A stretch of DNA of 64,000 bases from Candidatus Latescibacterota bacterium (lineage in GTDB: Bacteria > Latescibacterota > UBA2968 > UBA8231), in the NCBI GenBank assembly GCA_965242865.1, contig CBDETK010000013.1:1056001-1120000 (forward strand), in the 5' to 3' direction. The number at the start of each line of letters is the position of its first letter. Positions within the stretch are counted from its first letter, which is position 1. The position numbers and the translations under genes were made by a program. Shown piece after piece: positions 3,301-55,323 of this stretch. A model generated the notes under the pieces. It saw only the letters and a list, made by a program, of their open reading frames with translations. It was not told where the DNA came from and did not search any database.

Positions 3301-6300
3301 CGAAGCCGAGGGCAGCACCCAATCCCCTATCGACGACCCGGCAGCGAAGGTAATTTGATCCGCCACAGTTTCGTCGAAGCTGGGCATGCCAGCGACTGCA
3401 ATGGTAAAGCTCAACTCGGCCGAATCGCCATCCACATCCGCCACCCCATACGTCAACCCATACCCCTCGGCATACAACGCATCCAACGGCAGCGCACCCG
3501 AAAGCATCTGAGACGAGGCATCAAACGTCAGACCCGGAGGTAACTCCCCTGCCAAGCTATACGTCAACGCCACATTCCCACCCGAAGCCACCGGCAGAGC
3601 TAAACTCACCTCGTCGCCAGCCGTGTACATCTGATCGTCCACGACTTGGTCGCCGAAGCTGGGCATGCCAGCGACCACAATGGTGAAGCTCAACTCGGCT
3701 GAATCGCCATCCACATCCGCCACCCCATACATCAAATCATACCCCTCGGCATACAAAAGATCCGACGGCAGCGCACCCGAAAGCATCTGAGCCGTGGGAT
3801 CAAACGTCAGACCCGCAGGCAACTCACCCGTCAAACTATACGCCAACGACCCGTTACCGCCGGCCGCCATCGGCAGGGCTAAACTCACCTCGTCGCCAGC
3901 CGTGTACATCTGATCCTCCACGACCTGAGCACCGAAGCTGGGCATGCCAGCGACCACAATGGTGAAGCTCAACTCGGCTGAATCGCCATCCACATCCGCC
4001 ACTCCATACGTCAACCCATACCCCTCGGCATACAAAAGATCCGCCGACAGATCGCCCGAAAGCGTCCGAGACGAGGCATCAAACGCCAGCCCCGGAGGCA
4101 ACTCCCCCGTCAAACTATACGTCAACGACCCGTTACCGCCCGAAGCCGAGGGCAGCACCCAATCCCCTATCGACGACCCGGCAGCGAAGGTAATTTGATC
4201 CGCCACAGTTTCGTCGAAGCTGGGCATGCCAGCGACTGCAATGGTAAAGCTCAACTCGGCCGAATCGCCATCCACATCCGCCACCCCATACGTCAACCCA
4301 TACCCCTCGGCATACAACGCATCCAACGGCAGCGCACCCGAAAGCATCTGAGACGAGGCATCAAACGTCAGACCCGGAGGTAACTCCCCTGCCAAGCTAT
4401 ACGTCAACGCCACATTCCCACCCGAAGCCGCCGGCAGAGCTAAGCTGACCTCGTCGCCAGCCATGTACATCTGATCGTCCACGACTTGAGCACCGAAGCT
4501 GGGCATGCCGTTCACCGCAATGGTGAAGCTCAACTCGGCTGAATCGCCATCCACATCCGCCACCCGATACGTCAACGCATACCCCTCGGCAGCATACAAC
4601 ACATCCGTCGGCAGACCGCCCGAAAGCGTCTGAGACTCCGCATCAAACGCCAGACCCGGAGGCAATGCCCCCGCCAAGCTATACGACAACGCCACATTCC
4701 CACCCAAAGCCGCCGGCAGAGCTAAGTCCACTCCATCACCCGCGGTGTACATCTGGTCTTCTACGACTTGATCGCCGAAGCTAGGCATACCATTCACTAC
4801 TATCGTGAAGTCCAAAGTAGCTTCATCCCCGTCCGCATCGTTCACCATCAACGTCAATGAATATTCGGCTTGGTATAACCTATAAAGTGACGGCGTACCC
4901 GATAGTGTTCGAGTCGCGGCATCAAACTTTAGAAAACTCAGCTCCGACATCTGGTTACCGCGCAAGCTATACGTCAACTCGACATTGCCGCCATCCGCAT
5001 CCGGCAAAGTCAAGCTCATCTCCGCGCCTGCCGGATACGATGGCTTAGCGTCCACGGTCTTGTCGTCGCCGAAGCTGGGCATGCCATCCACCACTATCGT
5101 GAAGGGTAACTCAGCCGAATCGCCATCACCATCCCACACCTCCAACGTCAACTCATATTTATCGTCGTACACCACATCAGCAGGCGGCGTACCCGAAATC
5201 GTCCGCTTAGCGGGATCGTCATCAAACTCCAGACCCGGCGGCAGTTCCCCTTTCAGGCGATACTCCCATATCACATTCCCACCTGTCGGCTCCGGCAAAG
5301 TCAAGCTCATTGCCACGTCCGTCTGATACGGATCCTGCAGTCCATCCACGGTCTTGCCATCGAAGCTGGGCATGCCATCCACCACTATCGCAAAGCTCAA
5401 CACCGCATCATCGCCATCGGAATCCACCACCCGATAGGTGAACGCATATGACTCAGCATACACCACATCAGCAGGCGGCGTACCCGAAATCGTCCGAGAC
5501 CCAGCATCAAATACCAGACCCTCAGGCAACTCCCCGTCCAAGCTATACGTCAACGCTACATTCCCACCGACCGCCGCCGGCAGATCCAATTTTATCTCAT
5601 TGCCCGCTGTATATAGCTGGTCTTCCACAACCTGATCGCCGAAGCTGGGCATAGCAACCACCACAATCGTGAAGGTCAACTCAGCCGAATCGCCATCGGA
5701 ATCCACCACCCGATAGGTAAACGCATATGACTCAGCATACACCACATCAGCAGGCGGCGTACCCGAAATCGTCCGAGACCCAGCATCAAACACCAGACCC
5801 TCAGGCAACTCCCCATCCAAGCTATACGTCAGAGCGTCGATAGACCGACCCTCAGGCAACTCCCAAGGCTGTTTTATCTCTTCGCCTGCAGTAAAGGTTG
5901 TTTGACGCGCAGCGACCGCCGCAAAGGTAAGCTCCACCGAGATCGTAAAAGTCAATTCCTCCGCGTCGCTCTCCTCCATATTGGTATCGGAATCTTCTAC
6001 CCGGTAGGTCATTTCATACGTCCCAGCTACGGTCGGCGTACCCGAAAGCGTCCGCGACCCAGCATCAAACGTCAGCCCTGGCACTTCCGGTGACAAGCTA
6101 TATCTCGGAGGTGCCTCATGCTCGCCCACCAAAGCCTGAGGTAACTCCAGAACTCCTATCTCCTCGCCTGTCCGGTACGACTGAGCAGCAACCGTTGCCC
6201 CCTCAAAGCTCGGCATCGTATCGACTTCTATCTCGAATGTCAACGTGGCCGTATCGCCATCGGCATCCGTCGCCTCGTAAGTCATCAGGGAAATAGCCAC

Positions 6301-6891
6301 TTCCGAAGGCGTACCTGAAAGCGTCCGCGACGCCGCGTCAAACGTCAGACCCGGCGGCACAGGCCTTAAATTATATGTCAAATCGCCGTTACCACTTGAA
6401 GCCGCAGGCAACGCCAGAGCCTCTATTGCTACCCCGGCCGAGAACATCTGATCGGCAACCGTCGTACCGTCAAAGCTCGGAGCTACATCCTCCTCCTCTA
6501 CTGAAACATTGAATGTCAACATGACCGTAGCACCGTCGGCATCCGTCACTTCGTAGGTCATCAAGTAAAAGACCTTTTCCGGGAAGACGACAACATCCGA
6601 AGGCGTACCCAAAAGCGTCCGAGACCCGGCATCAAATGTCAAACCCGGCACCTCTGGCGACAGGCTATACGTAAGCTCGCCATTGCCTCCCGAAGCCGCA
6701 GGTAACTCCAGAGCCTCTATCGCCACCCCAGCCTCGTACACCTGATTGGCAACCGTCGCACCGTCAAAGCTCGGCGTATCCTGGGCCTCAGCCACCGGGA
6801 CCAACACCAAGGTGGCCGCCAGAAAGAAGATACTCAGGCAGAACAGCGATCTATTCCAAACAAGTCTGTTACTAACTGCACACCCGCTCAT
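316..6891 (-). CDS. Giant surface protein: signal peptide, ~18 putative Ig (He_PIG-like) repeats, C-terminal autotransporter-type beta-barrel
   Basis: 2191-aa ORF with ~93-aa repeats (LP.ASGGNG.LTYSL...PGL.FD...RTLSGTP...Y.V.D.DGD), an alpha-helical linker and a barrel-like C-terminus ending in F. Confidence 0.85.
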   Translation of the reverse strand: MSGCAVSNRLVWNRSLFCLSIFFLAATLVLVPVAEAQDTPSFDGATVANQVYEAGVAIEALELPAASGGNGELTYSLSPEVPGLTFDAGSRTLLGTPSDVVVFPEKVFYLMTYEVTDADGATVMLTFNVSVEEEDVAPSFDGTTVADQMFSAGVAIEALALPAASSGNGDLTYNLRPVPPGLTFDAASRTLSGTPSEVAISLMTYEATDADGDTATLTFEIEVDTMPSFEGATVAAQSYRTGEEIGVLELPQALVGEHEAPPRYSLSPEVPGLTFDAGSRTLSGTPTVAGTYEMTYRVEDSDTNMEESDAEELTFTISVELTFAAVAARQTTFTAGEEIKQPWELPEGRSIDALTYSLDGELPEGLVFDAGSRTISGTPPADVVYAESYAFTYRVVDSDGDSAELTFTIVVVAMPSFGDQVVEDQLYTAGNEIKLDLPAAVGGNVALTYSLDGELPEGLVFDAGSRTISGTPPADVVYAESYAFTYRVVDSDGDDAVLSFAIVVDGMPSFDGKTVDGLQDPYQTDVAMSLTLPEPTGGNVIWEYRLKGELPPGLEFDDDPAKRTISGTPPADVVYDDKYELTLEVWDGDGDSAELPFTIVVDGMPSFGDDKTVDAKPSYPAGAEMSLTLPDADGGNVELTYSLRGNQMSELSFLKFDAATRTLSGTPSLYRLYQAEYSLTLMVNDADGDEATLDFTIVVNGMPSFGDQVVEDQMYTAGDGVDLALPAALGGNVALSYSLAGALPPGLAFDAESQTLSGGLPTDVLYAAEGYALTYRVADVDGDSAELSFTIAVNGMPSFGAQVVDDQMYMAGDEVSLALPAASGGNVALTYSLAGELPPGLTFDASSQMLSGALPLDALYAEGYGLTYGVADVDGDSAELSFTIAVAGMPSFDETVADQITFAAGSSIGDWVLPSASGGNGSLTYSLTGELPPGLAFDASSRTLSGDLSADLLYAEGYGLTYGVADVDGDSAELSFTIVVAGMPSFGAQVVEDQMYTAGDEVSLALPMAAGGNGSLAYSLTGELPAGLTFDPTAQMLSGALPSDLLYAEGYDLMYGVADVDGDSAELSFTIVVAGMPSFGDQVVDDQMYTAGDEVSLALPVASGGNVALTYSLAGELPPGLTFDASSQMLSGALPLDALYAEGYGLTYGVADVDGDSAELSFTIAVAGMPSFDETVADQITFAAGSSIGDWVLPSASGGNGSLTYSLTGELPPGLAFDASSRTLSGDLSADLLYAEGYGLTYGVADVDGDSAELSFTIVVAGMPSFGAQVVEDQMYTAGDEVSLALPMASGGNVALTYSLAGELPPGLAFDPTAQTIAGTLPKDALYVEGCVLTYRVVDVDGDSTELSFTIAVKGMPSFDAQVVEDQMYTAGDEVSLALPAALGGNVALTYSLAGELPPGLVFDPTAQTIAGTPPPNVLYSAEGYALTYRVADVDSDSAELSFTIAVNGMPSFAGTITNQTIAEGEEMAPLELPAALGGNGELTYSLSPEVPGLTFDASSRTLSGTPTKAETYELTYRAEDSDGDSVEVTFSLKVDGTPAFDTTIEDRILRQNEAMDPWELPAALGGNGELTYSLALNVPGLSFDAASRTLSGTPTDTGVYRLVYRVADVDGDSAELTFHLTIDGAPSFSGTVANQTYIEGEAIEGLVLPLASGGNLLSLSPDGNGESGELTYTLDNVPPGLTFDPNPMSPMLSGTPTEVGTYTLTYTAHDADDNTTAEDAAILSFEVRVEESATDRFAELNDQILSKYALAIADGTNRAIENRLEQIGRVGDGSGSFRFAAESTLHDMIQSGRIFENSPVSLSQVMNGSSFAVPFGFGRGCIVCPGSPAFWGRGDYGKLSSDDGSLDWDGNLTRAQIGLDARPGAEMLTGLALSWAQGSFDYTAPLLGEERVDGTYTTRMLSLHPYIGFSPGRLGVWLTAGLGRGDLEIDDEQGTIGQQSSDTALRTASVGASGDLLDSGPTRLRVKGAATVAQVDVKGDGRIAEQTVNANRLRLALKGSHAYEMGMDGQVTPQLEVALRQDGGDGETGAGVEVGGGLRFEGSGFTLEAMARSLVAPPGDYNEWGAHLLIQRASGTDGRGLSMRLMPTYGTQANSLTLWERSVAELTERGTVNTQGQLRAEVGYGLAAPGGRGLYTVYSGMTQAPERMQLRLGTRFEVDSSMSVSLESTRWQRVAGAAEHGLLLRGRLVF
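3030..4505. repeat. Near-identical intragenic duplication with 840-bp offset
   Basis: Shadow ORFs 3104-3358/3944-4198 and 3355-3543/4195-4383 translate identically. Boundaries are approximate. Confidence 0.85.
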
Positions 6892-7261
6892 AATTGACCC
6901 TCCATATAGAGATTTAAGATTTAAGTTTAGGCTAAAACCACTGTGCTAGACCACTGTGCTAGACCGCTGCCTCACCGAAATCTAGAGGAAAGGGAAAGGA
7001 CGCAAATCACCGCATTCTCGTCAACGCGGATAAATTCGTCCCTTAATACCATCACCCACCACCGCACTCGTGATATCCTTACTTCCCTAGCACCCCTTAA
7101 CAATAATAGCTTAATTGAAAAGCGTGTAAAGAAGCCTGAAATCATTTCGCGGTTCCATCCTACCATCCTAAAGTATTCAATACAAAATACGCATCTAATA
7201 CTCAGGATGCAAGAGATAGTTTCTAAACGCTATGGCCCATCAGCGCCTAGCCAGAGAACGG

Positions 7262-19704: not shown

Positions 19705-21276
19705 TTGCAGCAGCGGCTTTTTCCCCTGCTGGCCTCGGCCCTCCTGTCGGGCCTGCTCTTCGTAGTTAGCATCCCCAAATTCGATCAGTACTACCTCGCT
19801 TGGATTTGCCTGCTGCCGCTCTTTTTGGCTCGGCACTGGCTGCCCGCCCCAAGCCACTTTGCCCTCGGGCTGGTCGCGGGCCTCGTCTGGGCGACCGGGC
19901 GCACGTACTGGATCACCGAGACCCTGCAATTGTACGGCTCGCTGTCCTCGGCGGCCGCCGGGGCGACTAATGCGCTGCTCATCTCGTACATGGCCTTGTA
20001 TCTGGCCTGCTTTGTCGCGGTGTGCCGCCGCCTAAACTTTTCCTCCCCGCTCTTTGCGTGGTCGGCCGCCGGCGTCTGGGTCCTTTTAGAGTGGGTGCAA
20101 AACTGGATGTTGAGCGGCTTTCCTTGGCAGCTTTTGGGCTACTCCCAGTACCTCAACCTGCCCCTCCTCCAATGGGCGGCCATAACCGGGGTCTATGGCC
20201 TCAGTTTCCTCATCGTCCTATTCAACGCCGCACTGGCCCAAGCCCTCTCGCACCGCGCCTTCCTCCCCTATCTGGGCCTGCCCCTCGTCCTGCTGGTCGC
20301 CGTTTATCTATGGGGCCTTTATCGGCTGCACGACGAGCCGGACCGGCCGCCAGCGACCCTGAAGGTCGGCGTCGTCCAAGGCAATATCCCCCAAGGCCGC
20401 AAGTGGCAGGAGGATCGGCTGGCTTGGACCACTCGGCACTACGCCGCGCTCACCCGGGACTTGGCCGCGGCCGAAAAACCAGCGCTGATCATCTATCCCG
20501 AGACGGCCCTGCCGCTCTATTTTGGCGACCCTTTGTACGCGGCCTATGTCGATTCGATAACCGCCCTAGCGCCCGCACTAGATACGCCCATGTTGGTCGG
20601 CAGCCTCAAGGGGGATTCGCAAAACCGCACGGCGCCGATCTACAACCGGGCCTTCCTGCTCAATGCTCAAGGGGAAGTCGTGGATTACGCCGACAAGGTC
20701 CACTTGGTGCCTTTTGGCGAGTTTCTACCCTTTCCATCCATCTTTCACTATTTGGGCGGGCTTACGGCAGAAAGCGGCATCTTCGCCCCCGGAGCAAGGC
20801 ACAAAGCCCTGCGGCTTCCGCGCAGCGACACTTCATTCGGGGTCTTTATTTGCTACGAGTCCATCTTCCCGGAAATCACCCGCGCCCTGATGGCCCAAGA
20901 GCCTGACTTTCTGGTCAACACCACCAACGACGCTTGGTTTGGCACCACCGCGGCCCCGCATCAGCACTTTGCCCAAGCGGTCCTGCGGGCCGTAGAAAGC
21001 GGGCGGGCCGTAGTCCGCGCCGCCAATACCGGCATTTCCGGCTTAATCGAACCGAGCGGGCGCATTGCCCATCGCACGCCGCTTTTTGCCACTGTGGGCT
21101 TTGCCCTAGACGTGCCCCTGCACCAAGGCCAGACGATCTACACGCGCTGCGGGGACTGGCCGCTCATGCTCTGCGCCCTCGCGCTAACGCTGGCCGTGGC
21201 CCTTAGATCTGGGTACGTTCGACATTGGCGCCGTGTCCTCGCATGGTGGGGACTAGGTTATGTGACGTTTGGCTGA
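19705..21276 (+). CDS. lnt: Apolipoprotein N-acyltransferase
   Basis: GFPWQLLGYSQ, VQGNIPQ, PETA, KVHLVPFGEF, ICYESIFP, TNDAWFG, RAANTGIS. Confidence 0.95.
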   Translation: MQQRLFPLLASALLSGLLFVVSIPKFDQYYLAWICLLPLFLARHWLPAPSHFALGLVAGLVWATGRTYWITETLQLYGSLSSAAAGATNALLISYMALYLACFVAVCRRLNFSSPLFAWSAAGVWVLLEWVQNWMLSGFPWQLLGYSQYLNLPLLQWAAITGVYGLSFLIVLFNAALAQALSHRAFLPYLGLPLVLLVAVYLWGLYRLHDEPDRPPATLKVGVVQGNIPQGRKWQEDRLAWTTRHYAALTRDLAAAEKPALIIYPETALPLYFGDPLYAAYVDSITALAPALDTPMLVGSLKGDSQNRTAPIYNRAFLLNAQGEVVDYADKVHLVPFGEFLPFPSIFHYLGGLTAESGIFAPGARHKALRLPRSDTSFGVFICYESIFPEITRALMAQEPDFLVNTTNDAWFGTTAAPHQHFAQAVLRAVESGRAVVRAANTGISGLIEPSGRIAHRTPLFATVGFALDVPLHQGQTIYTRCGDWPLMLCALALTLAVALRSGYVRHWRRVLAWWGLGYVTFG

Positions 21277-22795
21277 GGGGATTGAATGTCAGATCTATCG
21301 ATACGAGCGCGCCTTGAGCCTGAGCTATGGGGAGCAACGGACTTATATCCACAATCCGGTTGGTGGTTAGCGACAGATTAGTCAAGCTGGTTAGGCTGCC
21401 CAACGCACTCACATTCACAATCCGGTTGGTGTGTAGATTCAGGGTTGTCAGATTGGTTAGGTTGCCCAACGCACTCACATTCACAATCCGGTTGTTGCGT
21501 AGGCTCAGGTATGTCAGATTAGTTAGGCTGCCCAACGCACTCACATTCACAATCTGGTTGTCGCGTAGGCTCAGGTATGTCAGATTAGTTAGGCTGCCCA
21601 ACGCACTCACATTCACAATCTGGTTGTCGCGTAGGCTCAGGTATGTCAGATTAGTTAGGTTGCCCAACGCACTCACACTCGTAATCGAGTTGCCCCTCAG
21701 CTCCAGCCTTGTCAGACTGGTTAGGTTAGCCAGCGGCCTCAAGTCCGTAATCGAGTTGTTCCACCCTAGCTCCAGCGTCTCCAGTGCTGTCGCGTGTTCG
21801 AGGCCGGTCAAGTCCGCAATGCTTCGACTGTTCGCTCGGAGTAAGGTCAGAGAAGCCAGATCCGCCGGGGTAATATCCCTAGGCGGGCAACCATCCGTGG
21901 GGCAAACTGTCCACCGCACCGCAAGCTCCAGATTGGCGTCGGGGATGAGTTTTTGTTCCGGTTCTTCTGGATAGACTTGGGCGGTTTCGACGCGGGGGTA
22001 TTTTTCTAGTACCGCTACGACGCGGAGGCCGCTTGTTATCGCGGCGGCGAGTTGTTGGTTGGCCGCGTGCTGGCTAAGGGCGTTTTCCATCACGCCCAGC
22101 CATTGCAGGTTCGTCAGGCTGGCCAAGGGACTGACATCCGCAATGTCGTTGTCTCCTAGCTGGATCCATTGCAGGTTCGTTAGGCGAGCTAACGGACTCA
22201 CGTCGGTAATCGCGTTGCCCCACATATCCAGCGTGCGCAAGCGGATCAGGCTGGCCAGCGGACTCGCATCCGCCACCTTGTTCCCCCACAGCGACAACGT
22301 TTGAAGGTTGGTCAAGCGGGCCAACGGCTGCACATCGGTAATCGCGTTGCCCCGCAGATACAGCGTGTGCAGGGCCGTTGCGTGTTCAAGGCCGGCCACG
22401 CTCTCAATGTTTTTATAGCTCGCGTCGAGTTCGGTTAGGGCCGCCAAATCTGCCGGGGTCAGCGGCCCTGACGGGCGGTCCAACGCCTCCCGCACCGCTC
22501 GCTCCAAATTGGCGTCGGCGAACTCCACGGTCGCCGATTGAGTGCTATCGGCGTCAGCGTCGGTCTGGGTGCTATCGGCTTCGGCGTCGGTCTGGGTGGT
22601 GTCGGGGCTTTCGGGGGCGGGCAGCCCGTCGGTAGCGGTGTAGGTATCGTCGCCCAAGAATTCGCACAAGGAACAGGTGGCTTTGCCCGCCGGCCGAGAG
22701 GCGACCGGCGCGGAGTCTGAGCAGCCGATCCAAGTGCTGACGATGCCCAAAAGGACGAACCCAAGCAGGGTTTTTATCGATTTCAACGAAAGCAT
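21203..22795 (-). CDS. Internalin-like leucine-rich-repeat lipoprotein (paralog A: LRR + LRR)
   Basis: AAGGAG RBS, lipobox WIGC, FADANLE cap, 22-aa LxxLTNLxxLxLxxNxI repeats in two blocks. Confidence 0.88.
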   Translation of the reverse strand: MLSLKSIKTLLGFVLLGIVSTWIGCSDSAPVASRPAGKATCSLCEFLGDDTYTATDGLPAPESPDTTQTDAEADSTQTDADADSTQSATVEFADANLERAVREALDRPSGPLTPADLAALTELDASYKNIESVAGLEHATALHTLYLRGNAITDVQPLARLTNLQTLSLWGNKVADASPLASLIRLRTLDMWGNAITDVSPLARLTNLQWIQLGDNDIADVSPLASLTNLQWLGVMENALSQHAANQQLAAAITSGLRVVAVLEKYPRVETAQVYPEEPEQKLIPDANLELAVRWTVCPTDGCPPRDITPADLASLTLLRANSRSIADLTGLEHATALETLELGWNNSITDLRPLANLTSLTRLELRGNSITSVSALGNLTNLTYLSLRDNQIVNVSALGSLTNLTYLSLRDNQIVNVSALGSLTNLTYLSLRNNRIVNVSALGNLTNLTTLNLHTNRIVNVSALGSLTSLTNLSLTTNRIVDISPLLPIAQAQGALVSIDLTFNPLSQTSHNLVPTMRGHGANVERTQI

Positions 22796-23132
22796 TTTTT
22801 GCTCCTTTGTATGGATATGGTGTGGAAACAGGAAGAGAGGCATGACGCACCCAAAGAGGCAGAGCTAGCCCTAGGGCTGTGCTTGGAGCACTCAGAACGC
22901 GCCTCTTGCTGTGGGTGCGCCTTTGCTGGTGTTCTGGCGGCGTCCGGGGCGAGGAGATTCCGCCCTCGGTTTTTGGCAGACAGCTTGCGGGGGTGGTGCC
23001 GTAAACGGGGACCAGCATAAAGGCCGCACGGCAGCGTGCGCTTGGGGCCACGCGGCCAGATCGACGCGCCGCCCAATGGCCGCGCACGAGCCGTCGGCCG
23101 ATGCTGAGAAGTAGAGAGTGTAGTGCTTGGTG

Positions 23133-23246
23133 CTAGCGGAGAATTTTCGGGGGGGTGGGGGTGGGGGTTAAGTCGTTGTTTTTCAAGTACTTACGACACA
23201 TTAAATTTGACGATGAATCCAAGCACTCAACAGGGTTTTGCCCCAT
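23133..23246 (-). CDS. Putative upstream leader ORF crossing the interrupted poly-C tract (copy A)
   Basis: MGQNPV...RKYLKNNDLTPTPTPPKILR*, same frame and length as copy B; AGGGG lies 7 nt before the ATG. Alternative starts extend to 23315. Confidence 0.45.
   Translation of the reverse strand: MGQNPVECLDSSSNLMCRKYLKNNDLTPTPTPPKILR
23149..23168. repeat. Interrupted homopolymer tract G7TG5TG5T
   Basis: Read directly; same position and length as G20 at 54887-54906. Confidence 0.9.
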
Positions 23247-23326
23247 AGCAAGGCCCCTGCCTGATGTGAAATGCTTAACCATCGTCTCGTTCATTACGTC
23301 AACCGATCGTGCCAAATTTGCCGCTG

Positions 23327-23432
23327 TAACGGGCAGGCACGGGGGCCTGCCCCAACGCCTATAATTCTAACGGGCAGGCACGGGGGCCTGCCCCAACGAA
23401 ATTCTAACGGGCAGGCACGGGGGGCCGCCCCT
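23327..23432. repeat. Three tandem REP-like hairpins
   Basis: TAACGGGCAGGCACGGGGGCCTGCCCCAACG twice plus one degenerate copy; stem GGGCAGGC/GCCTGCCC. Confidence 0.85.
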
Positions 23433-23534
23433 GATTTAGGTTCTTTGCCGTCGTTAAATAAAAGCCTAAACACAGAAGCCGCAACCTTGCTTACTTCTAA
23501 GGCCCCAAGGTGGGTTTGCGGAGTAGACCGCTTC

Positions 23535-24320
23535 TTAGGCATTGCGACTGAACACCACCGGGCAATGCGTCGGGTCGTCGATAAAGGCCGTTAGGCCCTC
23601 CCGCTTGTCACCCACCGGGCGCGACCGCTCGGTGCGCAGGTGAACGGCCAAGCTGCGCCGCGGTCTCGTCGAGGAATTGGGGCCGCTGCCGTGTAGCGTC
23701 AGGCAGTGGTGAAAGCTCACGCCCCCTTTGGGCAGGGTCGCGGCTACTTCCACCCATTCGCCGTTAGCCTGCGCGACCAACTCGCGCTTCTGTTGGGCTA
23801 GGTCTTGGCCGAAGAAATCGCTGCCCGGCAGCAATCCCCACTGATGCGAGCCGCGCACAAAGCGCATCGGCCCGTCCGCAGAGCCGACCTCGCTCAAGGC
23901 GATCCACGCCGTAAACAACTCGCTGCCCTCTTCCCAAGCTCCCCAGTAGTTGCGGTCCTGATGCCATCCCACGTTGGCGTCTCCGCTCCCCGGCGGCTTG
24001 TACAGCAACTGCACCCACCAGACTTGGACCCACTCGGCCCCACAGACTTGAGCGGCCAACGCCCCAAGGGCCGGATGCTTGATCAGGTCCATAATCGCCC
24101 GATTGGCGATTTGGGGCTTTTCAATTTTGCACAATCGCGTCGGGTCGTCGCCCGGCTGCCACGCCGAGGGACGGGGCGGCACCCCGGTATCGTACTCGCC
24201 CCGCCGCACCGCATCCATGCCGGCCACCGCACGATCGACCGCGTCTAAGGGCCACAAGGCGGCCGCGTGGATGTAAAACCCATCCCGCCGATACGCTGCT
24301 TCGGAAGTTGCGCTCATCAT
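23535..24320 (-). CDS. Phytanoyl-CoA dioxygenase (PhyH) family protein
   Basis: WHQD..YW, TAWIAL, GPMRFVRGSH, FHHCLTLHGSGPN...RRSL. Confidence 0.9.
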   Translation of the reverse strand: MMSATSEAAYRRDGFYIHAAALWPLDAVDRAVAGMDAVRRGEYDTGVPPRPSAWQPGDDPTRLCKIEKPQIANRAIMDLIKHPALGALAAQVCGAEWVQVWWVQLLYKPPGSGDANVGWHQDRNYWGAWEEGSELFTAWIALSEVGSADGPMRFVRGSHQWGLLPGSDFFGQDLAQQKRELVAQANGEWVEVAATLPKGGVSFHHCLTLHGSGPNSSTRPRRSLAVHLRTERSRPVGDKREGLTAFIDDPTHCPVVFSRNA

Positions 24321-37771: not shown

Positions 37772-38365
37772 TTATGGTAGGTTGCCCAATGCACAGAGCC
37801 GTTCGACAAAGTAATCGGCACTAGGGCACTGGGCGTGTTGGGCGGCTCGTCTGACATCAAACCTGTGGTCGCGAATGAATTTTCTGGTAAAAACGAATCG
37901 GTCTTTCCCCGGCCCTCTGCCTTTTGCGTCGCGAAGTTCCTTCAGCCGATCCCAAGGCATTCCCGCCAGCGTTTCCGGGGCGGCCTCCCAGAAGGTGTCG
38001 TCGCCCAACCATCGACGCATGGCCTCTGTATCGGCGAGAAACCAAGATTCTATCGCCTTTCTCGCAATTGCGACTAAATCAATGTCTTGGGAACCAATAA
38101 TGTCCTTGCGCGCTTGCACGCACGGCGCACAGGTATCGGGATCGAGGTCGGCCAGTACAACCACCTTGTCGGGGTTTGCCTCCGCCCTAAGATTCCCGAC
38201 GAGGACTCCGATATTACGGCTGCACATATTACCGCTCCCAGCCGCATCAATCACCGGATCAACCACTTCCAAGTTGCAATCTTCGCGTAGCCATTGCCGA
38301 AACACTGCGCTTTGGACTAGCCGCTTTTCTGAGTCCCCTTCCACCACGAATCCCACAGTCACCAT
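37772..38365 (-). CDS. DUF4276/RloB-like TOPRIM-type partner protein
   Basis: VGFVVEGDSE, LADLD, AIESWFLAD; directly downstream of the AAA ATPase. Confidence 0.7.
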   Translation of the reverse strand: MVTVGFVVEGDSEKRLVQSAVFRQWLREDCNLEVVDPVIDAAGSGNMCSRNIGVLVGNLRAEANPDKVVVLADLDPDTCAPCVQARKDIIGSQDIDLVAIARKAIESWFLADTEAMRRWLGDDTFWEAAPETLAGMPWDRLKELRDAKGRGPGKDRFVFTRKFIRDHRFDVRRAAQHAQCPSADYFVERLCALGNLP

Positions 38366-39516: not shown

Positions 39517-40394
39517 AGCGACACCCGCACTCGGCTCTTTTTTGCCAAGGATTTCTCCAGCGCCTCCAGCACCACCACCGGCCCCAACATGGTCTGGGCG
39601 GTCTCGTTGGTTTTGCCGGTGCGGAACATGGCGCAAAAATCGCGAATGCCGCTCAAGTATTGGCTCTCGTCAAAGGTGATGGGCGCGTCAATGCGGCCCT
39701 GCTCGCCGATGGCGCTCAGATGGAAACCGGGCGCAGCCCCGCCCACCAAATTCAGGGTGGCCACGCAGCCGTTGCGGTACGCGAGGGTCGCTGTGTGGTT
39801 GGCCCCGGCCCCGCGATGGACCTCGGCCCAGCGCACATCCGCGCCGAGCAGGCGCAGCACCATATCCACTTGGTGAATGCCGTAAAAAAAGACCCCGCCC
39901 CACTTCGACTTGATGTCGCAGGGGCCGGTGGCAACTACGGCCTGAATGGGGCCGAGCCGGCGCATCTTTTGGGCAAAATCCTGGTACGCGGCCTGTTTGG
40001 GCAACGTCGAAAAAGAGCAGACTGGCACGCCCAACGCTTCAGCCCGCGCCAAAAAACGCTGCCCCTCGGCCCGGCGGTAGCAGAACGGCTTGTCGATAAA
40101 AAGCGGGATTTTGGCTTCGAGCAGGGGGCGGGCTGCCGGCAGGTGCTCCTTGCCGTGGCGCTGATCGACCACCGCCGCATCGACTTGGCCGATCAGTGCT
40201 TCGGGCGTGCGGACAATGTGCGGGATTTGACCGGCGGCCGCCGCGGCCTGCGCGTATTGGGCGGTCTCGCCCCACACGTGGGTCACCCGCACACCGCGCA
40301 CCCTTTTTTCGACGTTGAGCACCTTGGCGATGGCGGCCGTGTGGCTGTTTTCCGCCCCGACGATGCCGATGGTCAGCACCTTATGCCTCGCCAA
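39513..40394 (-). CDS. Gfo/Idh/MocA oxidoreductase
   Basis: IGIVGAENSH, LFIDKPF, FYGIHQVD. Confidence 0.88.
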   Translation of the reverse strand: MARHKVLTIGIVGAENSHTAAIAKVLNVEKRVRGVRVTHVWGETAQYAQAAAAAGQIPHIVRTPEALIGQVDAAVVDQRHGKEHLPAARPLLEAKIPLFIDKPFCYRRAEGQRFLARAEALGVPVCSFSTLPKQAAYQDFAQKMRRLGPIQAVVATGPCDIKSKWGGVFFYGIHQVDMVLRLLGADVRWAEVHRGAGANHTATLAYRNGCVATLNLVGGAAPGFHLSAIGEQGRIDAPITFDESQYLSGIRDFCAMFRTGKTNETAQTMLGPVVVLEALEKSLAKKSRVRVSL

Positions 40395-46210: not shown

Positions 46211-47947
46211 CTAGTACGTCCTGTACACCACCCTAGTACCACTTGCTCGAATGGCGGGGATGTGAGTGGTGATTGATGCTCTGCTGAGGGGATTGTCCAC
46301 CAGATACAGGACGCCTAGGTTGGTTAGGCCGGCCAACGGACTCACGTCCTCAATCTCATTCTCGTCCAGACTCAACGATTTTAGGTTGGTCAGGCTCGCC
46401 AGCGAACCCACATCCGAAATCTCGTTATTATCCAGGGTCAACCATTTTAGGTTGGTCAGGCTCGCCAACGAACCCACGCCCGAAATCTCGTTACCGCCCA
46501 GACGCAACCATTCTAGGTTGGTCAGGCTGGCCAACGGACTTATATCCGAAATCTCGTTACTGGCCAGATAAAGATGATCTTTTAGGTTGGTCAGGCTCGC
46601 CAGCGAACCCACGTCCGAAATCTCGTTATTATCCAGCTTCAGCCCTTTTAGGTTGGTCAGGCTCGCCAACGAACCCACGTCCGAAATCTCGTTGTTCGAC
46701 AGGTCCAGCGTTCGCAGGTTGGTCAGGCTCGCCAACGAACCCACGTCCGAAATCTCGTTGTTCGACAGGTCCAGCGTTCGCAGGTTGGTCAGGCCGGCCA
46801 ACGGACGCAAATCCGTAATTTCGTTGCGCGACAGATATAGCTCTTGCAGTGCCGTCGCGTGTTCGAGGCCGGCCAAGCTCCGAATGTTGGTACCATTCGC
46901 TGAGAGCACGGTCAAGTGAGCCAGATCCGCCGGGTAAAGGGGCTGCCCGTGCGGGAGACGCGGGAAAGCCAGCACCGCCCGCACCTCCTCCTCCAGATTG
47001 GGGTCGGCGAACTCAACGGCTACCGCGCCCAGGTCCGCTTCCCTTTCTATCACAACGGCTACCGCGCCCAGGTCCGCTTCCGGTTCTATGGACTCGCTGA
47101 TGAGGTCGTTCGTGCCCAGCCATTGCAGGTTAGTCAGGCTCGCTAACGGACTCGTGTCCGCAATCTCGTTCTTCTCTAGCTGCAGCCATCGCAGGTTAGT
47201 TAGGCTGGCTAACGGACGCACGTCCGTAATTTGGTTCCCCCACAGCGACAGCACTCGCAGGTTGGTCAGGCTCGCCAACGGACGCACGTCCGTAATCTTG
47301 TTCCCCCACAGCGACAGCTTCCAAAGGTTGGTCAGGCTCGCCAGCGGACGCACGTCCGTAATTTGGTTGCGCCGCAGATATAGCTCTTGCAGTGCCGTCG
47401 CGTGTTCGAGGCCGGCCAAGCTCTGAATGTTTCTATCGCTCGCGTCGAGATAGGTCAGGGACGCCAGACCGGCCGCGGTAAGAGGCTGCCCGTGCGGGAG
47501 TTCCAATGCCTCCCGCACCGCCGCCGCCAGATTGGCGTCGGCGAACACAATGGCGTCGGCGGTTTCGGCTGGAGTGCTATCGGTTTCGTCGTCGGTCTCG
47601 CCATCGGTTTCGTCGTCGGTCTCGCCATCGGTCTCGCCATCGGTCTGGGTGCTATCGGGGCTTTCTACCGGCCCCTGCCCGCCCGCCTCGGTGCTATCGG
47701 CGGCGGTCTCGGTCTGGGTACTATCGGGCTCGGCGGTCTGGGTGCTATCGGGGCTTTCTATCGGCTCCTGCCCGTCAGCCGCGATGTAGGTCTCGTCGTC
47801 CAAGAAATCGCACAAGGCACAGGTGGCTTTGCCCGCCGGACGAGAGGCCACCGGCGCGGAGGTCCGTTCCGAGCAGCCCATCCAAGCCCCGACGAGGCCC
47901 AAAAGGACGAACCCAAGCAGGGTTTTTATCGATTTCAACAGTGGCAT
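46211..47947 (-). CDS. Internalin-like LRR lipoprotein (paralog C)
   Basis: AAGGAG RBS, lipobox WMGC, RPAGKATCALC, acidic linker, two cap+LRR blocks. Confidence 0.88.
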   Translation of the reverse strand: MPLLKSIKTLLGFVLLGLVGAWMGCSERTSAPVASRPAGKATCALCDFLDDETYIAADGQEPIESPDSTQTAEPDSTQTETAADSTEAGGQGPVESPDSTQTDGETDGETDDETDGETDDETDSTPAETADAIVFADANLAAAVREALELPHGQPLTAAGLASLTYLDASDRNIQSLAGLEHATALQELYLRRNQITDVRPLASLTNLWKLSLWGNKITDVRPLASLTNLRVLSLWGNQITDVRPLASLTNLRWLQLEKNEIADTSPLASLTNLQWLGTNDLISESIEPEADLGAVAVVIEREADLGAVAVEFADPNLEEEVRAVLAFPRLPHGQPLYPADLAHLTVLSANGTNIRSLAGLEHATALQELYLSRNEITDLRPLAGLTNLRTLDLSNNEISDVGSLASLTNLRTLDLSNNEISDVGSLASLTNLKGLKLDNNEISDVGSLASLTNLKDHLYLASNEISDISPLASLTNLEWLRLGGNEISGVGSLASLTNLKWLTLDNNEISDVGSLASLTNLKSLSLDENEIEDVSPLAGLTNLGVLYLVDNPLSRASITTHIPAIRASGTRVVYRTY

Positions 47948-52874: not shown

Positions 52875-54524
52875 CTACCAAATACCCAGCGCGAGGCGAT
52901 ATGGATACTCCAACCCCGTGGCGATGAAGTCTTCGACCATTATTGTGCCATCCAAGTTGGCCCGCTGAATTTTACCCGAGCCCCAGTCCGCCCAGTATAT
53001 CTTTCCACGCGCCGCATCCACTGCGAGGCCCCATGGCGTCGTCACCCCCGTGGCGATGAAGTCTTCGACCATTATTGTGCCATCCAAGTTGGCCCGCTGA
53101 ATTTTACCCGGGCCCGGATGCACCCAGGTCACCCAGTATATCTTTCTGTTCACCAAATCCAGCGCGAGGCCCGATGCATTATTCAATCCCGTGATGAGGT
53201 CTTGGTCCTCTGAGCCATCCAACTTGGCATACCGAATCTTATTCAAGCTCCAGTCCGTCCAGTATATCTTTCCGCCCACCACATCCAGCGCGATGCTCTG
53301 TGGCGTACCCAATCCCATGGTGACGATGTTTTGGCGTTCTGAGCCATCCAAGTTGGCACGCCCAATATGATCCGGGCTGCCCCCGTCCGTCCAGTATATC
53401 TTTCTGTTCACCGAATCCACCGCGATGCCATTTGGACTATCCAATCCCATGGTGATGATGTCTCGGCGGTCTGAGCCATCCAAGTTGGCACGCCCAATCG
53501 TACCCGGGTCGCCGTTCGTCCAGTATATCTTTCCGCGCACCACATCCAGCGCGATGTCATTTGGAACACCCAATCCCGTAAGGAAGTCTTGGCGGCCTGA
53601 GTCATCCAAGTTGACACGCCCAATCTTACCCGTGCCCAGGCCAAGGTTAAGGTCCGTCCAGTATAGGGCGGGCACTGGTTCCGGTTCCGGCGGCTCTGGA
53701 TAGACTTGGACGGTTTCGACGCGGGGGTATTTTTCTAGTACCGCTTCGACGCGGAGGCCGCTTGTTATCGCGGCGGCGAGTTGTTGGTTGGCCGCGTGCT
53801 GGCTAAGGGCGTTTTCCATCACGCCCAGCCATTGCAGGTTGGTCAGGCTGGCCAAGGGACTCACGTCCGCAATGTCGTTGTCACCTAGATTGAGAAATTG
53901 CAGCTTGATTAGGCCCGCTAACGGCTGCACATCCGTAATTTCATTGCCCCACATATCCAACGTGCGCAAGCGGATCAGGCTGGCCAGCGGACTCGCATCC
54001 GCCACCTTGTTGCCCCACAGCGACAACGTTTGCAGGTTGGTCAAGCGGGCCAACGGCTGCACGTCGGTAATCGCGTTGCCTCGCAGATACAACGTTGTCA
54101 GGGCCGTTGCGTGTTCAAGGCCGGCCACGCTCTCAATGTTTTTATAACTCGCGTCAAGTTCGGTTAGGGTCGCCAAGTCCGCCGGGGTAATCGGCCCTTG
54201 TGGGCGGTCCAACGCTTCCCGTACCGCTCGCTCCAGATTGGCGTCGGCAAACTCCACGGCAGCCGATTGGGTGCTATCGGCGTCGGCGTCGGTCTGGGTG
54301 CTATCGGCGTCGGCGTCGGTCTGAGTGGTGTCAGGGCTTTCAGGGGCGGGCAGCCCGTCGGTAGCAGTGTAGGCGTCGTCGCCCAAGAACTCGCACAAGG
54401 AACAGGTGGCTTTGCCCGCCGGCCGAGAGGCCACCGGCGCGGAGTCTGAGCAGCCCGTCCAAGCCCCGACGATGCCCAAAAGGACGAACGCAAACAGGGT
54501 TTTGAGAGATTTCAACGAAAGCAT
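52875..54524 (-). CDS. Lipoprotein with LRR block + six-bladed YWTD (LDL-receptor class B) beta-propeller (paralog B)
   Basis: N-half nearly identical to paralog A, then LYWTD/IYWTN/IYWTD/IYWTD/IYWVT/IYWAD with RANLDG repeats. Confidence 0.88.
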   Translation of the reverse strand: MLSLKSLKTLFAFVLLGIVGAWTGCSDSAPVASRPAGKATCSLCEFLGDDAYTATDGLPAPESPDTTQTDADADSTQTDADADSTQSAAVEFADANLERAVREALDRPQGPITPADLATLTELDASYKNIESVAGLEHATALTTLYLRGNAITDVQPLARLTNLQTLSLWGNKVADASPLASLIRLRTLDMWGNEITDVQPLAGLIKLQFLNLGDNDIADVSPLASLTNLQWLGVMENALSQHAANQQLAAAITSGLRVEAVLEKYPRVETVQVYPEPPEPEPVPALYWTDLNLGLGTGKIGRVNLDDSGRQDFLTGLGVPNDIALDVVRGKIYWTNGDPGTIGRANLDGSDRRDIITMGLDSPNGIAVDSVNRKIYWTDGGSPDHIGRANLDGSERQNIVTMGLGTPQSIALDVVGGKIYWTDWSLNKIRYAKLDGSEDQDLITGLNNASGLALDLVNRKIYWVTWVHPGPGKIQRANLDGTIMVEDFIATGVTTPWGLAVDAARGKIYWADWGSGKIQRANLDGTIMVEDFIATGLEYPYRLALGIW

Positions 54525-54870
54525 TTTTTGCTCCTTTGTATGGTTGGGGAAGAAATGGTATGGAGGTGTGGAAGAGGGGCAGGACGCCCCGAAAGAGGCA
54601 GAGTTAGCCCTAGGGCTAACTTGGAGTGCTCAGGACGCGCCCCTTGCTGTGGGTACGCCTTTGCTAGTGTTCTCGCGGTGTCTGGAGCGAAGAGATTCCG
54701 CCCTCGGTCCTTGGCAGACAGCTTGCGGGGGTGGTGCAGTAAACGGGGATCAGCATAAAGGCCGCACGGTAGCGTGCGCTTGGGGTCGTGCGGCCAGACC
54801 GACGCGCCGCCCAACAGCCGCACACGAGCCGTCGGCCTATGCTGAGAAGTGGAGCGTTTAGTGCTTGGTG

Positions 54871-54984
54871 CTAGCGGATAATTTTCGGGGGGGGGGGGGG
54901 GGGGGGTAAGTCGTTGTTTTTCAAGGACTTACGACACATTAAATTTGACGACGATTCCAAGCACCCAACAGGGTTTTGCCCCAT
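54871..54984 (-). CDS. Putative upstream leader ORF crossing the C20 tract (copy B)
   Basis: MGQNPV...RKSLKNNDLPPPPPPPKIIR*. Confidence 0.45.
   Translation of the reverse strand: MGQNPVGCLESSSNLMCRKSLKNNDLPPPPPPPKIIR
54887..54906. repeat. G20 homopolymer (C20 on the coding strand)
   Basis: Read directly; the length may be affected by assembly error. Confidence 0.9.
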
Positions 54985-55064
54985 AGCAAGGCCCCTGCCT
55001 GATGTGAAATGCTTAACCATCGTCTCGTTCATTACGTCAACCGATCGTGCCAAATTTGCCGCTG

Positions 55065-55166
55065 TAACGGGCAGGCACGGGGGCCTGCCCCAACGGGATT
55101 CTAACGGGCAGGCACGGGGGCCTGCCCCAACGGGATTCTAACGGGCAGGCACGGGGGGCCGCCCCT
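55065..55166. repeat. Three tandem REP-like hairpins
   Basis: Same units as 23327-23432, with GGATTC spacers. Confidence 0.85.
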
Positions 55167-55323
55167 GATTTCGGTTATTTGCCGTCGGGCCATAATTAAA
55201 AGCCTAAACACAGAAGCCGCAATCTGCTTACTTCTAAGAAGCATATAGTTTTCAGACAACTTCTAACGATACACGCCTGAGATACTCGGCCTCCTGTTTT
55301 TCGTATGTGAAGCAACGTTCGCG

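Follow-up and report, generated by a model that had tools for sequence, protein, structure and literature searches.

A lineage-specific family of predicted lipoproteins in a Latescibacterota genome, with a 5' block probably homogenised by gene conversion

Genes A and B, two paralogs in the 64-kb stretch of Latescibacterota DNA analysed here (the window), belong to a lineage-specific multigene family of predicted lipoproteins, and the 5' block of this family is probably homogenised by gene conversion. For the source genome, the evidence for conversion consists of protein trees and the single A-B pair, complemented by the related Latescibacterota genome L002 (OZ242005.1). Under this mechanism, homologous recombination between copies would hold the 5' block (the front half, together with some 0.7 kb of upstream DNA in A and B) near-identical, and the back halves would be old and divergent. 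Because homology ends at the linker between the two halves, conversion tracts and chimeric junctions would accumulate there. The pattern of a constant module joined to a swapped domain could in this way arise without a dedicated recombinase.

Paralogs in the window

In a blastn search of the window against itself, the minus-strand blocks 21955-23501 and 53684-55238 matched with 90.3% identity over 1561 columns (E = 0). Each block covers about 0.7 kb of non-coding leader and extends 280 codons into a lipoprotein gene. An earlier, sequence-only reading of this DNA had placed the homology at 21966-23501 and 53695-55238; the match is real, its outer limits (23501 and 55238) are exact, and the inner limits were 11 nt short. 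Since A and B are both on the minus strand, the "far upstream edge" of that reading is the high-coordinate end. No homology between A and B was found downstream of the genes in the same search.

Paralog A (21203-22795, minus strand) is an open reading frame of 530 aa, counted from the start codon common to A and B, which has AAGGAG 7 nt upstream. It is identical to database protein P0003, located on a 5,613,566-bp contig. Across 21203..22795 (minus strand) the domain order is lipoprotein signal peptide, CxxC, acidic Thr/Gln/Asp-rich stretch, LRR, Pro/Glu linker, and second cap plus LRR; Pfam LRR families match along the whole protein (LRR_4, E 1.8e-57, 10 stretches). The constant front half (21955..22795, minus strand) comprises the 280 codons homologous to B, with dS 0.231, dN 0.056, and 18, 12, and 46 differences at the three codon positions. 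The back half (21203..21954, minus strand) contains the second LRR cap and an array of 66-nt (22-aa) repeat units, with internal repeats at 21335-21776 that are 84% identical at an offset of 66 nt. It is 42-53% identical to other LRR+LRR back halves and unrelated to that of B. At about 10% divergence, A and B show no very recent conversion between each other.

Paralog B (52875..54524, minus strand, 549 aa) has an A-type front half followed by a six-bladed YWTD propeller; Pfam finds LRR and Ldl_recept_b (PF00058, E 1.9e-42, 5 stretches). Paralog C (46211..47947, minus strand, 578 aa) follows the same design with LRR + LRR. Its identity to A (76-82% in DNA) is confined to the 5' coding part, and its upstream region can be aligned with A and B from the ribosome-binding site onward only. 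C had already been noticed as a third paralog with a common N-terminal design and a different leader, and this description holds: an nhmmer profile of the leader, run over the whole window, matched at two of the three genes and not at C. Each of the three is a complete gene with its own start and ribosome-binding site, and they are spaced 23-31 kb apart among housekeeping genes.

Domain architecture and structure

Judged from their sequences, the family members are predicted lipoproteins of five parts: a signal peptide with a lipobox Cys, CxxC with an acidic stretch, an LRR domain, a linker, and a back domain. The signal reads MLSLKSLKTLFAFVLLGIVGAW-TGC|SDS in A and B. All 20 sequences of one set have Cys25, and in a comparison of 39 it is nearly invariant. 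The charged n-region, hydrophobic core, and lipobox Cys at +1 agree, as judged by eye against the lipobox consensus, with the signal of bacterial lipoproteins (Lgt/LspA substrates). An lnt gene adjoins A, and the organism therefore probably triacylates its lipoproteins. The family proteins may be displayed at the surface.

In the AlphaFold2 model of B, pLDDT is above 90 for most of residues 90-210, drops to about 50 by 250, and is above 80 for 282-549. Values below 50 occur at 1-13 and 15-85, and again at 256-259 and 261-281, between the two confident domains. The acidic stretch after CxxC is probably disordered, and the Pro/Glu linker between the LRR and back domains is disordered. Residues 122-234 form alternating short strand/helix units (pLDDT mostly above 90), and residues 286-547 form 24 strands arranged as six four-stranded blades. 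In a Foldseek search, the best PDB matches of the propeller were the YWTD propellers of LRP6, LRP4, ApoER2, nidogen, and LDLR (for LRP6 8dvm_A: E 7e-24, 31% identity, rmsd 1.9); the probability of 1.00 to LRP6, LRP4, and LDLR places it in the YWTD / LDL-receptor class B type. B and these animal propellers share six four-stranded blades at 25-32% identity and rmsd 1.7-2.7 over about 265-280 columns. However, unlike the animal proteins, B has no flanking EGF or LDL-A modules and joins its propeller to an LRR domain preceded by a bacterial lipoprotein signal; a Pfam scan of B found no flanking EGF-like module, and the last blade is the end of the protein.

Family size and back domains

A match to B residues 1-125 was found in 37 database proteins, 13 of them on the 5,613,566-bp contig that carries A. 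B and C are absent from those 13, so the genome holds at least 15 family genes; the family is thus not limited to the two copies first compared. PF00058 was present in 12 of the 13. The sequence-only reading had proposed a constant front half joined to different back domains, and the family does combine its front half with unrelated back domains. These are mostly YWTD beta-propellers, in some members a second LRR block, and in few a He_PIG Ig-like domain; a distant member has a PD40 propeller. By motif count, the number of blades per member ranges from 1 to about 6-7.

Repeat families are a common source of chimeric assembly joins, and collapsed or mis-joined repeats in the metagenome-assembled chromosome could in principle produce such architectures. 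We consider an artefact of this kind exceedingly improbable: the differences between A and B, at about 10% of positions, are spread over the whole block, both reading frames are intact, and independent contigs as well as a second chromosome-level assembly contain like architectures.

The junction at the Pro/Glu linker

The homology between A and B stops after the codons for ...EKYPRVET(A/V)QVYPE. Abrupt divergence after KYPRVET.QVYPE had been claimed, and this was borne out: beyond this point A has a second LRR domain and B the six-bladed YWTD propeller. Across the family, the divergence point lies a few residues past VETVQVYPE, in the Pro/Glu linker; the linker motif was found in 25 of the 42 sequences examined, at residues 263-273 in 21 of those 25. 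Breakpoints therefore cluster at a single junction site instead of being scattered. Under gene conversion, this pile-up is explained by the end of homology at the linker.

A sharp common junction would also be expected from dedicated cassette swapping, be it site-specific inversion or a shufflon, a diversity-generating retroelement, or displacement by orphan C-terminal cassettes as in polymorphic toxins. It might also be favored by a short repeat that borders both leaders on their upstream side and has MITE-like ends: the copy directly upstream of the A leader (23504..23537, minus strand) is similar to the left end of a MITE-like element in L002, and related copies lie at 52731-52765 (plus strand) and at the upstream edge of the B leader. 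Nevertheless, such swapping is very unlikely. No recombinase, integrase, transposase, or reverse transcriptase was found among the 43 other window ORFs scanned, in agreement with the earlier statement that no recombinase is visible there, and the ORF beside C had no family match. All three copies are complete, neither promoterless or partial cassettes nor silent copies of a front or back half were found in the window, and the genes are dispersed among housekeeping genes. A diversity-generating retroelement was rejected specifically, as there is no reverse transcriptase among these 43 ORFs and the only gene repeats are the paralogs themselves.

Histories of the front and back halves

In L002, two tandem paralogs show no difference between +101 and +820 (100% identity, 12 windows of 60/60). 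Outside this 720-nt tract they are 90% identical before it and 60-83% after it, and the tract ends near the junction. Together with the lack of downstream homology between A and B and the absence of silent cassettes, this conversion tract indicates that the mobile part is the 5' block. The "swappable C-terminus" of the sequence-only reading thus probably has its direction reversed, with the shared 5' block moving by ordinary homologous recombination.

Pairwise identity among the 13 members from the same genome (78 pairs) is 82-96% in the front half, with a median of 91, and 24-86% in the back half, with a median of 50. Members with the same back type from different front clades are 81-84% identical in the front and 63-67% in the back, whereas members of the same front clade with different back types are 91-95% identical in the front and 40-49% in the back. 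The front half of A is closest to that of the YWTD-type protein P0016 (95-96% protein identity), a placement with 93% support in the tree, where branches were starred at a threshold of 95%. In the front-half tree (35 rows), back-domain type requires 6 changes, and the starred branches force at least 3. The clade of P0020, P0023, P0024, and P0026 has 100% support in the front halves and is divided by the deepest split of the back-half tree. AU tests rejected the clade of each half on the alignment of the other half (p 3e-7 and 9e-5), for groups that were picked after viewing the trees. These comparisons show that front and back halves have different histories.

The clustering of front halves by genome covers the 5.61-Mb contig only: 12 of its 14 rows fall into one 16-row clade with 94% support (A and B from the window and 10 database proteins). 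P0015, from the same contig, lies outside this clade, and three of the clade rows are from other contigs.

Plain duplication followed by selection would have the front half and leader constrained, the back halves evolving fast under diversifying selection, and A resulting from one non-homologous fusion, with no ongoing recombination. The front-half dN/dS of 0.24 reflects purifying selection, leader blocks are conserved across species, and the junction is a natural domain boundary, all of which would fit. We nevertheless regard this alternative as quite unlikely. The front-half dS between A and B (0.23) is below that to homologs in other species (0.45-0.61), and protein-level selection alone is inadequate to account for it. 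Duplication and selection also leave unexplained that the non-coding leader has about one third of the synonymous divergence (JC 0.086 against dS 0.231), that the front and back trees conflict strongly, and that L002 has a perfect tract of 720 nt.

The leader

The leader of A (22796..23501, minus strand) is 706 nt long and that of B (54525..55238, minus strand) 714 nt; they differ by 57 mismatches in 700 aligned positions and by 20 gap columns. Every reading frame has 7-11 synonymous against 22-25 non-synonymous differences, and since none shows a synonymous excess, the leader is considered non-coding. No match was found to Rfam, nor, in the leader of A, to a sigma-70-like promoter. A constant leader of about 700 nt had been claimed; however, it is not constant in the family, being present at two of the three window genes and, at homologs in other species, in part, as about 300 nt at one homolog in another species (L001) and as a conserved 63-nt piece of the leader profile at another (L002). 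K for the leader core across species is 0.32-0.33, compared to a dS of 0.45-0.61, so the core evolves only moderately slower than synonymous sites and its constraint is modest. A regulatory role of the leader is plausible.

Three tandem G+C-rich hairpin units are located at the 5' end of the A leader (23323..23431, minus strand; fold -56.4 kcal/mol, z -1.9). The unit has 6 matches in the window, 3 per leader, and none in shuffles. A 100-nt block (23256..23355, minus strand) is free of substitutions between A and B, and much of it (23324 and below) is within the leader core conserved in L001. At 23149..23193 (minus strand) a short inverted repeat precedes a C-tract that reads C5-A-C5-A-C7 in A; this block is also found in B, L001, and L050. 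In the B leader the C-tract is an uninterrupted 20 nt (54887..54906, minus strand; a G run on the plus strand).

Through this long C-tract, the expression of single copies could be switchable. If the tract changed length by slipped-strand mispairing, paralogs would be turned on and off and a stochastic repertoire like that of the mycoplasma variable lipoproteins would result, a phase-variable expression that is compatible with gene conversion and that we consider possible but rather unlikely. The tract itself may belong to a promoter, to a 5' UTR, or to neither. The tract spans 20 nt in B, 19 positions with two A in A, 16 nt in L001, and 12 nt in L050; the B, L001, and L050 tracts are uninterrupted and exceed the length of about 9 nt or more, in a promoter or 5' region, that was taken as capable of slippage. 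In three genomes the tracts lie within one conserved block upstream of LRR genes, and their length is different at each locus while the flanks are conserved. Homopolymers of at least 9 nt are otherwise rare: the B tract is the sole one in the 64-kb window, and two of the 6 in 716 kb of loci are these tracts. On the other hand, C and both L002 genes have no tract. According to the available part of PMC2268961, promoter homopolymer tracts control the expression of mycoplasma vlp, maa2, and vmm, but a similar T-tract in M. agalactiae had no role. A further, doubtful extension is that the leader is a portable switch, made of a hypermutable C-tract and a conserved palindrome and carried by each paralog, that randomly toggles receptor-mimicking lipoproteins (LRR-YWTD, LRR-LRR) in an uncultivated, host-associated bacterium and is spread or reset when leader and front half undergo conversion. 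To our knowledge, no contingency-locus repertoire of eukaryote-like proteins has been described in this symbiont phylum.

The leader might instead be a transcribed regulatory 5' UTR, either a Rho-dependent attenuator in which Rho loads at the C-tract (Rho prefers poly-C) or an upstream ORF in which the tract encodes poly-proline. The fully conserved leader block is about 460 nt from the start codon, compared to about 30 nt for the first conserved block in L002, which suggests that the rest of the leader is an inserted untranslated region; furthermore, A and B have an ORF with the start MVKHFTS in which the tract would be translated as prolines. However, this ORF stops ahead of the tract in L001, and neither the leader frames, with no synonymous excess, nor Rfam, with no matching family, favor a 5' UTR of this kind. 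A three-sequence alifold gave compensatory pairs at 3 of 69 (covariation term -0.96), and the hairpin beside the C-tract is weak, at -4 to -9 kcal/mol, and in L050 it is outscored by another fold. We therefore view the 5' UTR reading with considerable doubt.

Comparison with known systems

Members of the mycoplasma lipoprotein families Vsp of M. bovis, Vpma of M. agalactiae, and Vlp of M. hyorhinis agree in their 5' untranslated region and at the N-terminal end of the coding sequence and are unrelated over the rest, as described in the available part of PMC2268961. The family of A and B shares with them the multigene lipoproteins with a conserved upstream and N-terminal coding region and a divergent remainder, the leader here being limited to A, B, and partly L001; in the mycoplasmas a homopolymer tract lies near the promoter. 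The conserved coding part is the signal peptide only in mycoplasmas, whereas here it spans about 280 residues including a whole folded LRR domain. Vpma and Vsp genes are clustered beside a tyrosine recombinase and use one promoter via inversion, in contrast to the dispersed genes here (23-31 kb apart, no recombinase among the 43 ORFs). The variable parts are short repeats in mycoplasmas and globular eukaryote-like domains here, and switching is a candidate property here.

Poribacteria are reported to be enriched in LRR and PF00058 proteins that carry a signal peptide or a membrane anchor (PMC3909097, in part), and LRR and other eukaryote-like domains were reported in sponge Latescibacterota MAGs (PMC12993501, in part). 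Like these sponge-symbiont proteins, including the LDL-receptor class B repeats of Poribacteria, the present family combines LRR or PF00058 with a signal peptide or anchor. The available portions of these papers count domains; an LRR-YWTD fusion family, a common front half and leader, concerted evolution, and the C-tract are not described in them, and "YWTD" and "low-density lipoprotein" have 0 occurrences in the available text of PMC12993501. Single eukaryote-like proteins changed uptake by sponge cells (PMC13747020, in part). As eukaryote-like proteins, the family members may bind host ligands, the host probably being a sponge.

So far, the eukaryote-like proteins of sponge bacteria have mostly been known as domain counts, and the present family as a whole can be viewed as a system: one conserved scaffold for export, anchoring, and LRR, old and divergent LRP/LDL-receptor-like propellers, and recombination that would keep the scaffold uniform. 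The front half and leader core provide a sequence handle to find the family in other metagenomes. The questions raised are which host ligands the different propellers have and whether copies are expressed singly. If the C-tract is variable, an uncultivated symbiont phylum would join the pathogens in which phase variation occurs.

Polymorphic toxin, Rhs, and CDI proteins have a conserved N-terminal part, a sharp junction, and swapped C-terminal domains, along with a toxin, an immunity gene, and orphan cassettes. The sequence-only reading had likened the logic of this family to such C-terminal swapping. The conserved N-terminal part, sharp junction, and unrelated C-terminal domains are indeed common to both, but with no toxin domain, immunity gene, or orphan cassette in the window the likeness is only formal, and assignment to these systems was rejected.

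The LRR domains are internalin-like, with tandem 22-residue LxxLxLxxN units and an N-terminal cap (Pfam LRR_4, LRR_8). Listeria internalins have the same units and cap and were the best NCBIfam matches; the cut-off for class 1 internalins was missed, with a best score of 211.9 bits against 1600. In contrast to the Listeria proteins, the family lacks both an inter-repeat Ig domain and any LPXTG or GW anchor, and the anchor here is the predicted lipobox.

Paralogs sharing upstream DNA and a front half

For this region, comparison of the window with itself gave a sole long off-diagonal match, between 21955-23501 and 53684-55238 (90.3% identity over 1561 columns). The sequence-only reading had held the genes of copy A (21203-22795, minus strand, 530 aa) and copy B (52875-54524, minus strand, 549 aa), both predicted lipoproteins, to be homologous together with their leader, and this match bears that out. 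The shared block comprises upstream DNA (706 nt in A, 714 nt in B) and 843 nt of coding sequence (280 codons); AAGGAG precedes the start ATG in both genes, and the identity ends a few codons past ...EKYPRVET(A/V)QVYPE. Pfam searches placed LRR families along the entire length of A, and LRRs followed by Ldl_recept_b (PF00058, the YWTD propeller; E 1.9e-42) in B. These assignments, and the six blades in the model of B, agree with the domain description in that reading, as does the third paralog that it had proposed, with the same front and a different leader: C (46211-47947, minus strand, LRR + LRR) matches A at 76-82%, confined to the 5' part of the coding sequence, and upstream of C the ribosome-binding site is the only part in common with A and B.

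Housekeeping genes surround the copies: lnt and PhyH flank A, DprA and DUF418 flank B, and oxidoreductases and a CoA-transferase are also present. The apolipoprotein N-acyltransferase gene lnt (19705-21276, plus strand) is convergent with gene A, and their 3' ends overlap by 74 nt (21203-21276).

Protein architecture

The signal peptide ends in W-(T/I/M)-G-C, which we take to fit the lipobox pattern; the cysteine is invariant in a 20-sequence alignment. Next come a conserved K-A-T-C-x-L-C-x-F-L motif and an acidic stretch that is rich in Thr, Gln, and Asp and varies in length, and then an LRR cap with five repeats of 22 residues. The nearest NCBIfam models are internalins, with scores far below their cut-offs. 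An AlphaFold2 model of B, built from an alignment of 19 relatives, had a mean pLDDT of 78.4. Residues 1-13 and 15-85 are of low confidence, and the LRR solenoid starts at about residue 90, with pLDDT >90 up to about residue 210 and falling to about 50 by residue 250. The linker (256-259 and 261-281) has pLDDT <50, and residues 286-547 form 24 strands, that is, six blades. Foldseek matched this propeller to LRP6, LRP4, ApoER2, nidogen, and LDLR (25-32% identity, rmsd 1.7-2.7).

Family size and back domains

With residues 1-125 of B as query, 37 proteins were matched, 13 of which, A among them, are encoded on the 5,613,566-bp contig that carries A; PF00058 was found in 12 of these 13. Because B and C are absent from the 13, the chromosome has at least 15 family members. 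Of all 37, PF00058 was found in 21, He_PIG (PF05345) in four, and LRR families only in 12; in two of these 12 (P0009 and P0014; P-numbers denote database family proteins), motif matching shows one YWTD-like blade. When 1.84 billion representatives were searched exhaustively with HMMER, 262 proteins matched with E up to 0.001. Of the 150 matches listed, about 40 align from their own N-terminus; among the matches listed, long proteins align via the LRR cap only, at internal positions. A Pfam scan covered 28 of the 40 N-terminally matching proteins and found LRRs in 20 (one with an additional He_PIG, one with a PD40 propeller), He_PIG alone in one, and no family in seven.

Seven members (P0009, P0014, P0006, P0035, P0005, P0010, and P0012) have only one, two, or about four YWTD blades and retain the usual C-terminal ending ..IALG(T/V)(R/W), which suggests blade loss through within-gene recombination. 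The window also contains a 2191-aa ORF (316-6891, minus strand) in which numerous He_PIG Ig-like repeats (E 4.5e-131) are combined with an autotransporter beta-domain at the C-terminus. At the DNA level, the ORF repeats itself at offsets of about 270 and about 840 nt (70-79% identity), and the He_PIG back domain of P0030 matches this gene by tblastn.

Position of the junction

Of the 42 sequences examined, 25 have the motif (E/D)(K/R)(Y/F)(P/R)xVE, which in 21 of these 25 lies at residues 263-273. Divergence begins in the Pro/Glu-rich stretch just past the motif, which is the low-confidence linker of the B model. The breakpoints are thus not scattered, in line with the sequence-only reading; their clustering is as expected from a domain boundary that ends a block of homology.

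Histories of front and back halves

For the 78 pairs among the 13 members of the 5.61-Mb contig, identity is 82-96% in the front half (median 91) and 24-86% in the back half (median 50). The front-half phylogeny was calculated from 35 sequences, without P0022, which is almost a copy of the L001 protein (L001, L002, and L050 are loci with LRR genes from other Latescibacterota chromosomes), and six sequences that lack the anchor motif, C included. Mapped onto the tree, back-domain type requires six changes, and at least three changes for YWTD are forced by branches with at least 95% support. The LRR-type P0019 groups with the YWTD-type P0027 and P0028 (98%), the YWTD-type P0014 with the He_PIG-type P0030 (96%), and A (P0003) with the YWTD-type P0012 and P0016 (93%).

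The back-half phylogeny contained the 20 YWTD members of at least 200 residues. Its end branches are about eightfold longer than those of the front-half tree (median 0.29 versus 0.035). P0026 is separated from P0020, P0023, and P0024 in the back-half tree, whereas the same four form a clade with 100% support by front halves. In AU tests, for which the groups were chosen after the trees had been inspected, the clade of each half was rejected on the alignment of the other (p 3.2e-7 and 9.3e-5).

Sequences with the same back type from different front clades are 81-84% identical in the front half and 63-67% in the back half; for sequences of the same front clade with different back types, the values are 91-95% and 40-49%, respectively. 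The front half of A is 95-96% identical to that of the YWTD-type P0016; in the back half, A shares 42-53% identity with the LRR back halves of C, L002, P0011, and P0019.

The 5' block as the probable unit of copying

Of the 77 loci from the genome scan, which used generic LRR patterns, 75 proved to be unrelated LRR genes; Poribacteria were the source of many of the weaker LRR matches. The informative loci were L001, L002, and L050. The closest homologs found lie in OZ242005.1, a Candidatus Latescibacterota MAG (L001, 71%; L002, 68%); coding and non-coding DNA are conserved at 72-75% between the window and OZ242005.1, pointing to a related Latescibacterota bacterium as the source of the window.

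The two tandem paralogs of L002 are about 90% identical over the signal peptide, 100% identical from +101 to +820 (12 successive windows of 60/60), and 60-83% identical thereafter. The identical stretch is a gene-conversion tract over the front half that ends near the junction. The front halves of A and B have a dS of 0.231 and a dN of 0.056 (18, 12, and 46 differences at codon positions 1, 2, and 3), a dS below the values for the homologs from the other species (0.45-0.61). In the leader, 57 of 700 aligned positions differ between A and B (JC 0.086), about one third of the neighbouring synonymous divergence. Selection at the protein level cannot account for such low synonymous and non-coding divergence. 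Between the back halves of the paralogs, divergence is far greater than between back halves of one type from other contigs.

The sequence-only reading had proposed a constant front to which a swappable C-terminal domain is fused. The window self-comparison found no homology between A and B downstream of the stop codons. A tblastn search of the window with all front and back halves found no silent or partial cassettes and matched only A, B, and C, except that He_PIG-type halves additionally matched the large He_PIG gene at 1756-6738. Since neither downstream homology nor partial cassettes were found, the unit copied between loci is probably the 5' block and not the back domain. The reading's remark that no recombinase is visible was upheld: among the 43 other window ORFs scanned, there was no recombinase, transposase, or reverse transcriptase.

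A 319-aa ORF directly downstream of C (45203-46162, minus strand), which has a (GIEQ)n repeat, was considered as a candidate YhgA/Rpn recombination-promoting nuclease; Pfam and NCBIfam scans returned no family and only a low-complexity repeat, and the candidate was dropped. Directly upstream of C lies a 158-aa coiled-coil ORF (48098-48574, minus strand) with EESNRRF-type repeats, a C-terminal hydrophobic segment, and internal 99-nt repeats of 93% identity (48176-48274 and 48305-48403). A 425-aa AAA_21 (AbiEii-like) ATPase ORF, possibly a defence-type ATPase, is located among sugar-metabolism genes (38359-39636, minus strand).

Known systems and habitat

The family is, by predicted location, a variable surface-protein family that is probably homogenised at its 5' end. 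In PMC2268961, mycoplasma lipoprotein families are described with a conserved 5' UTR and N-terminus, unrelated remainders, and homopolymer tracts near promoters. LRR proteins and LDL-receptor class B proteins of sponge symbionts have been published (Kamke et al.; PMC3909097), and ELP expression affects uptake by sponge cells, according to PMC13747020. A further paper, PMC4772301, is not relevant, as YWTD there refers to sponge host proteins only. Full-text searches that covered few subscription journals found neither an LRR-YWTD lipoprotein family with a common front half and leader nor any account of concerted evolution or C-tracts in LRR-YWTD genes. Latescibacterota and Poribacteria are known from sponges (PMC12993501 and PMC3909097); the bacterium of the window may be associated with sponges.

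The leader

From its 5' end, the leader (22796-23501 in A) consists of a short repeat similar to the end of a MITE-like element, three tandem G+C hairpins, a fully conserved block (23256-23355, 100 nt without any change between A and B), a short inverted repeat followed by a C-tract, and about 340 nt of G+C-rich sequence before the ribosome-binding site. Coding sequence, including a 60-aa ORF at 23133-23315 (minus strand), was rejected: all six frames have stops and no synonymous excess, with 7-11 synonymous versus 22-25 non-synonymous differences in each frame of a 478-nt gap-free block. The leader is non-coding.

A leader segment of about 300 nt (23324-23020) recurs upstream of the L001 gene at 72% identity in a different genomic context, and the first L002 gene has a 63-nt piece upstream of it. 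In L050, a locus of a third Latescibacterota chromosome, the inverted repeat and C-tract precede a 972-aa LRR protein by about 220 nt. Across species, the leader core has a K of 0.32-0.33 versus a dS of 0.45-0.61, so its constraint is moderate and concentrated in blocks. In L050, the inverted repeat and C12 block occupy 3834-3912, one arm pair of the repeat being changed on both sides from G-C to A-T; the 972-aa ORF (4095-7013) encodes an acidic linker, two LRR domains, and a C-terminal HExxH region.

The C-tract measures 20 in B, C5-A-C5-A-C7 in A, 16 in L001, and 12 in L050. Other homopolymers of at least 9 nt number zero in the window and only four in 716 kb of loci. The window shows strand asymmetry, with 33.1% C and 27.5% G on the plus strand, and the minus strand carries most of the long ORFs. 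Rfam gave one tRNA only for the whole window at gathering score, and no match in 22700-23600 at E up to 1. Alifold on only three sequences (A, B, and L001) yielded 69 pairs, only three of them with compensatory change, and no convincing covariation. There was no match to a sigma-70-like promoter in 22700-23650, and sigma-54-like TGGCAC..TTGA and Bacteroidetes-type motifs, sought by eye, were dismissed on spacing. The leader is likely a shared regulatory region and may possibly act as a phase-variable switch; a Rho- or upstream-ORF-based attenuator would be less likely.

A complete MITE-like element (137 nt with 17-nt inverted ends) is located at L002 2892-3028. Relatives of its left end lie at the upstream edges of both leaders (23470-23537 and 55200-55265, minus strand), and another lies just downstream of the gene B region (52728-52830, plus strand). 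The 3' part of the L001 leader contains a G+C-rich palindromic repeat (..GATCGAGGGC....GCCCTCGATC..; L001 4876-4934), which is also present, inverted, downstream of the L001 gene (6300-6454) and at L002 10478-10552; given these copies elsewhere, dispersed repeats also contribute to the 3' part of the leader.
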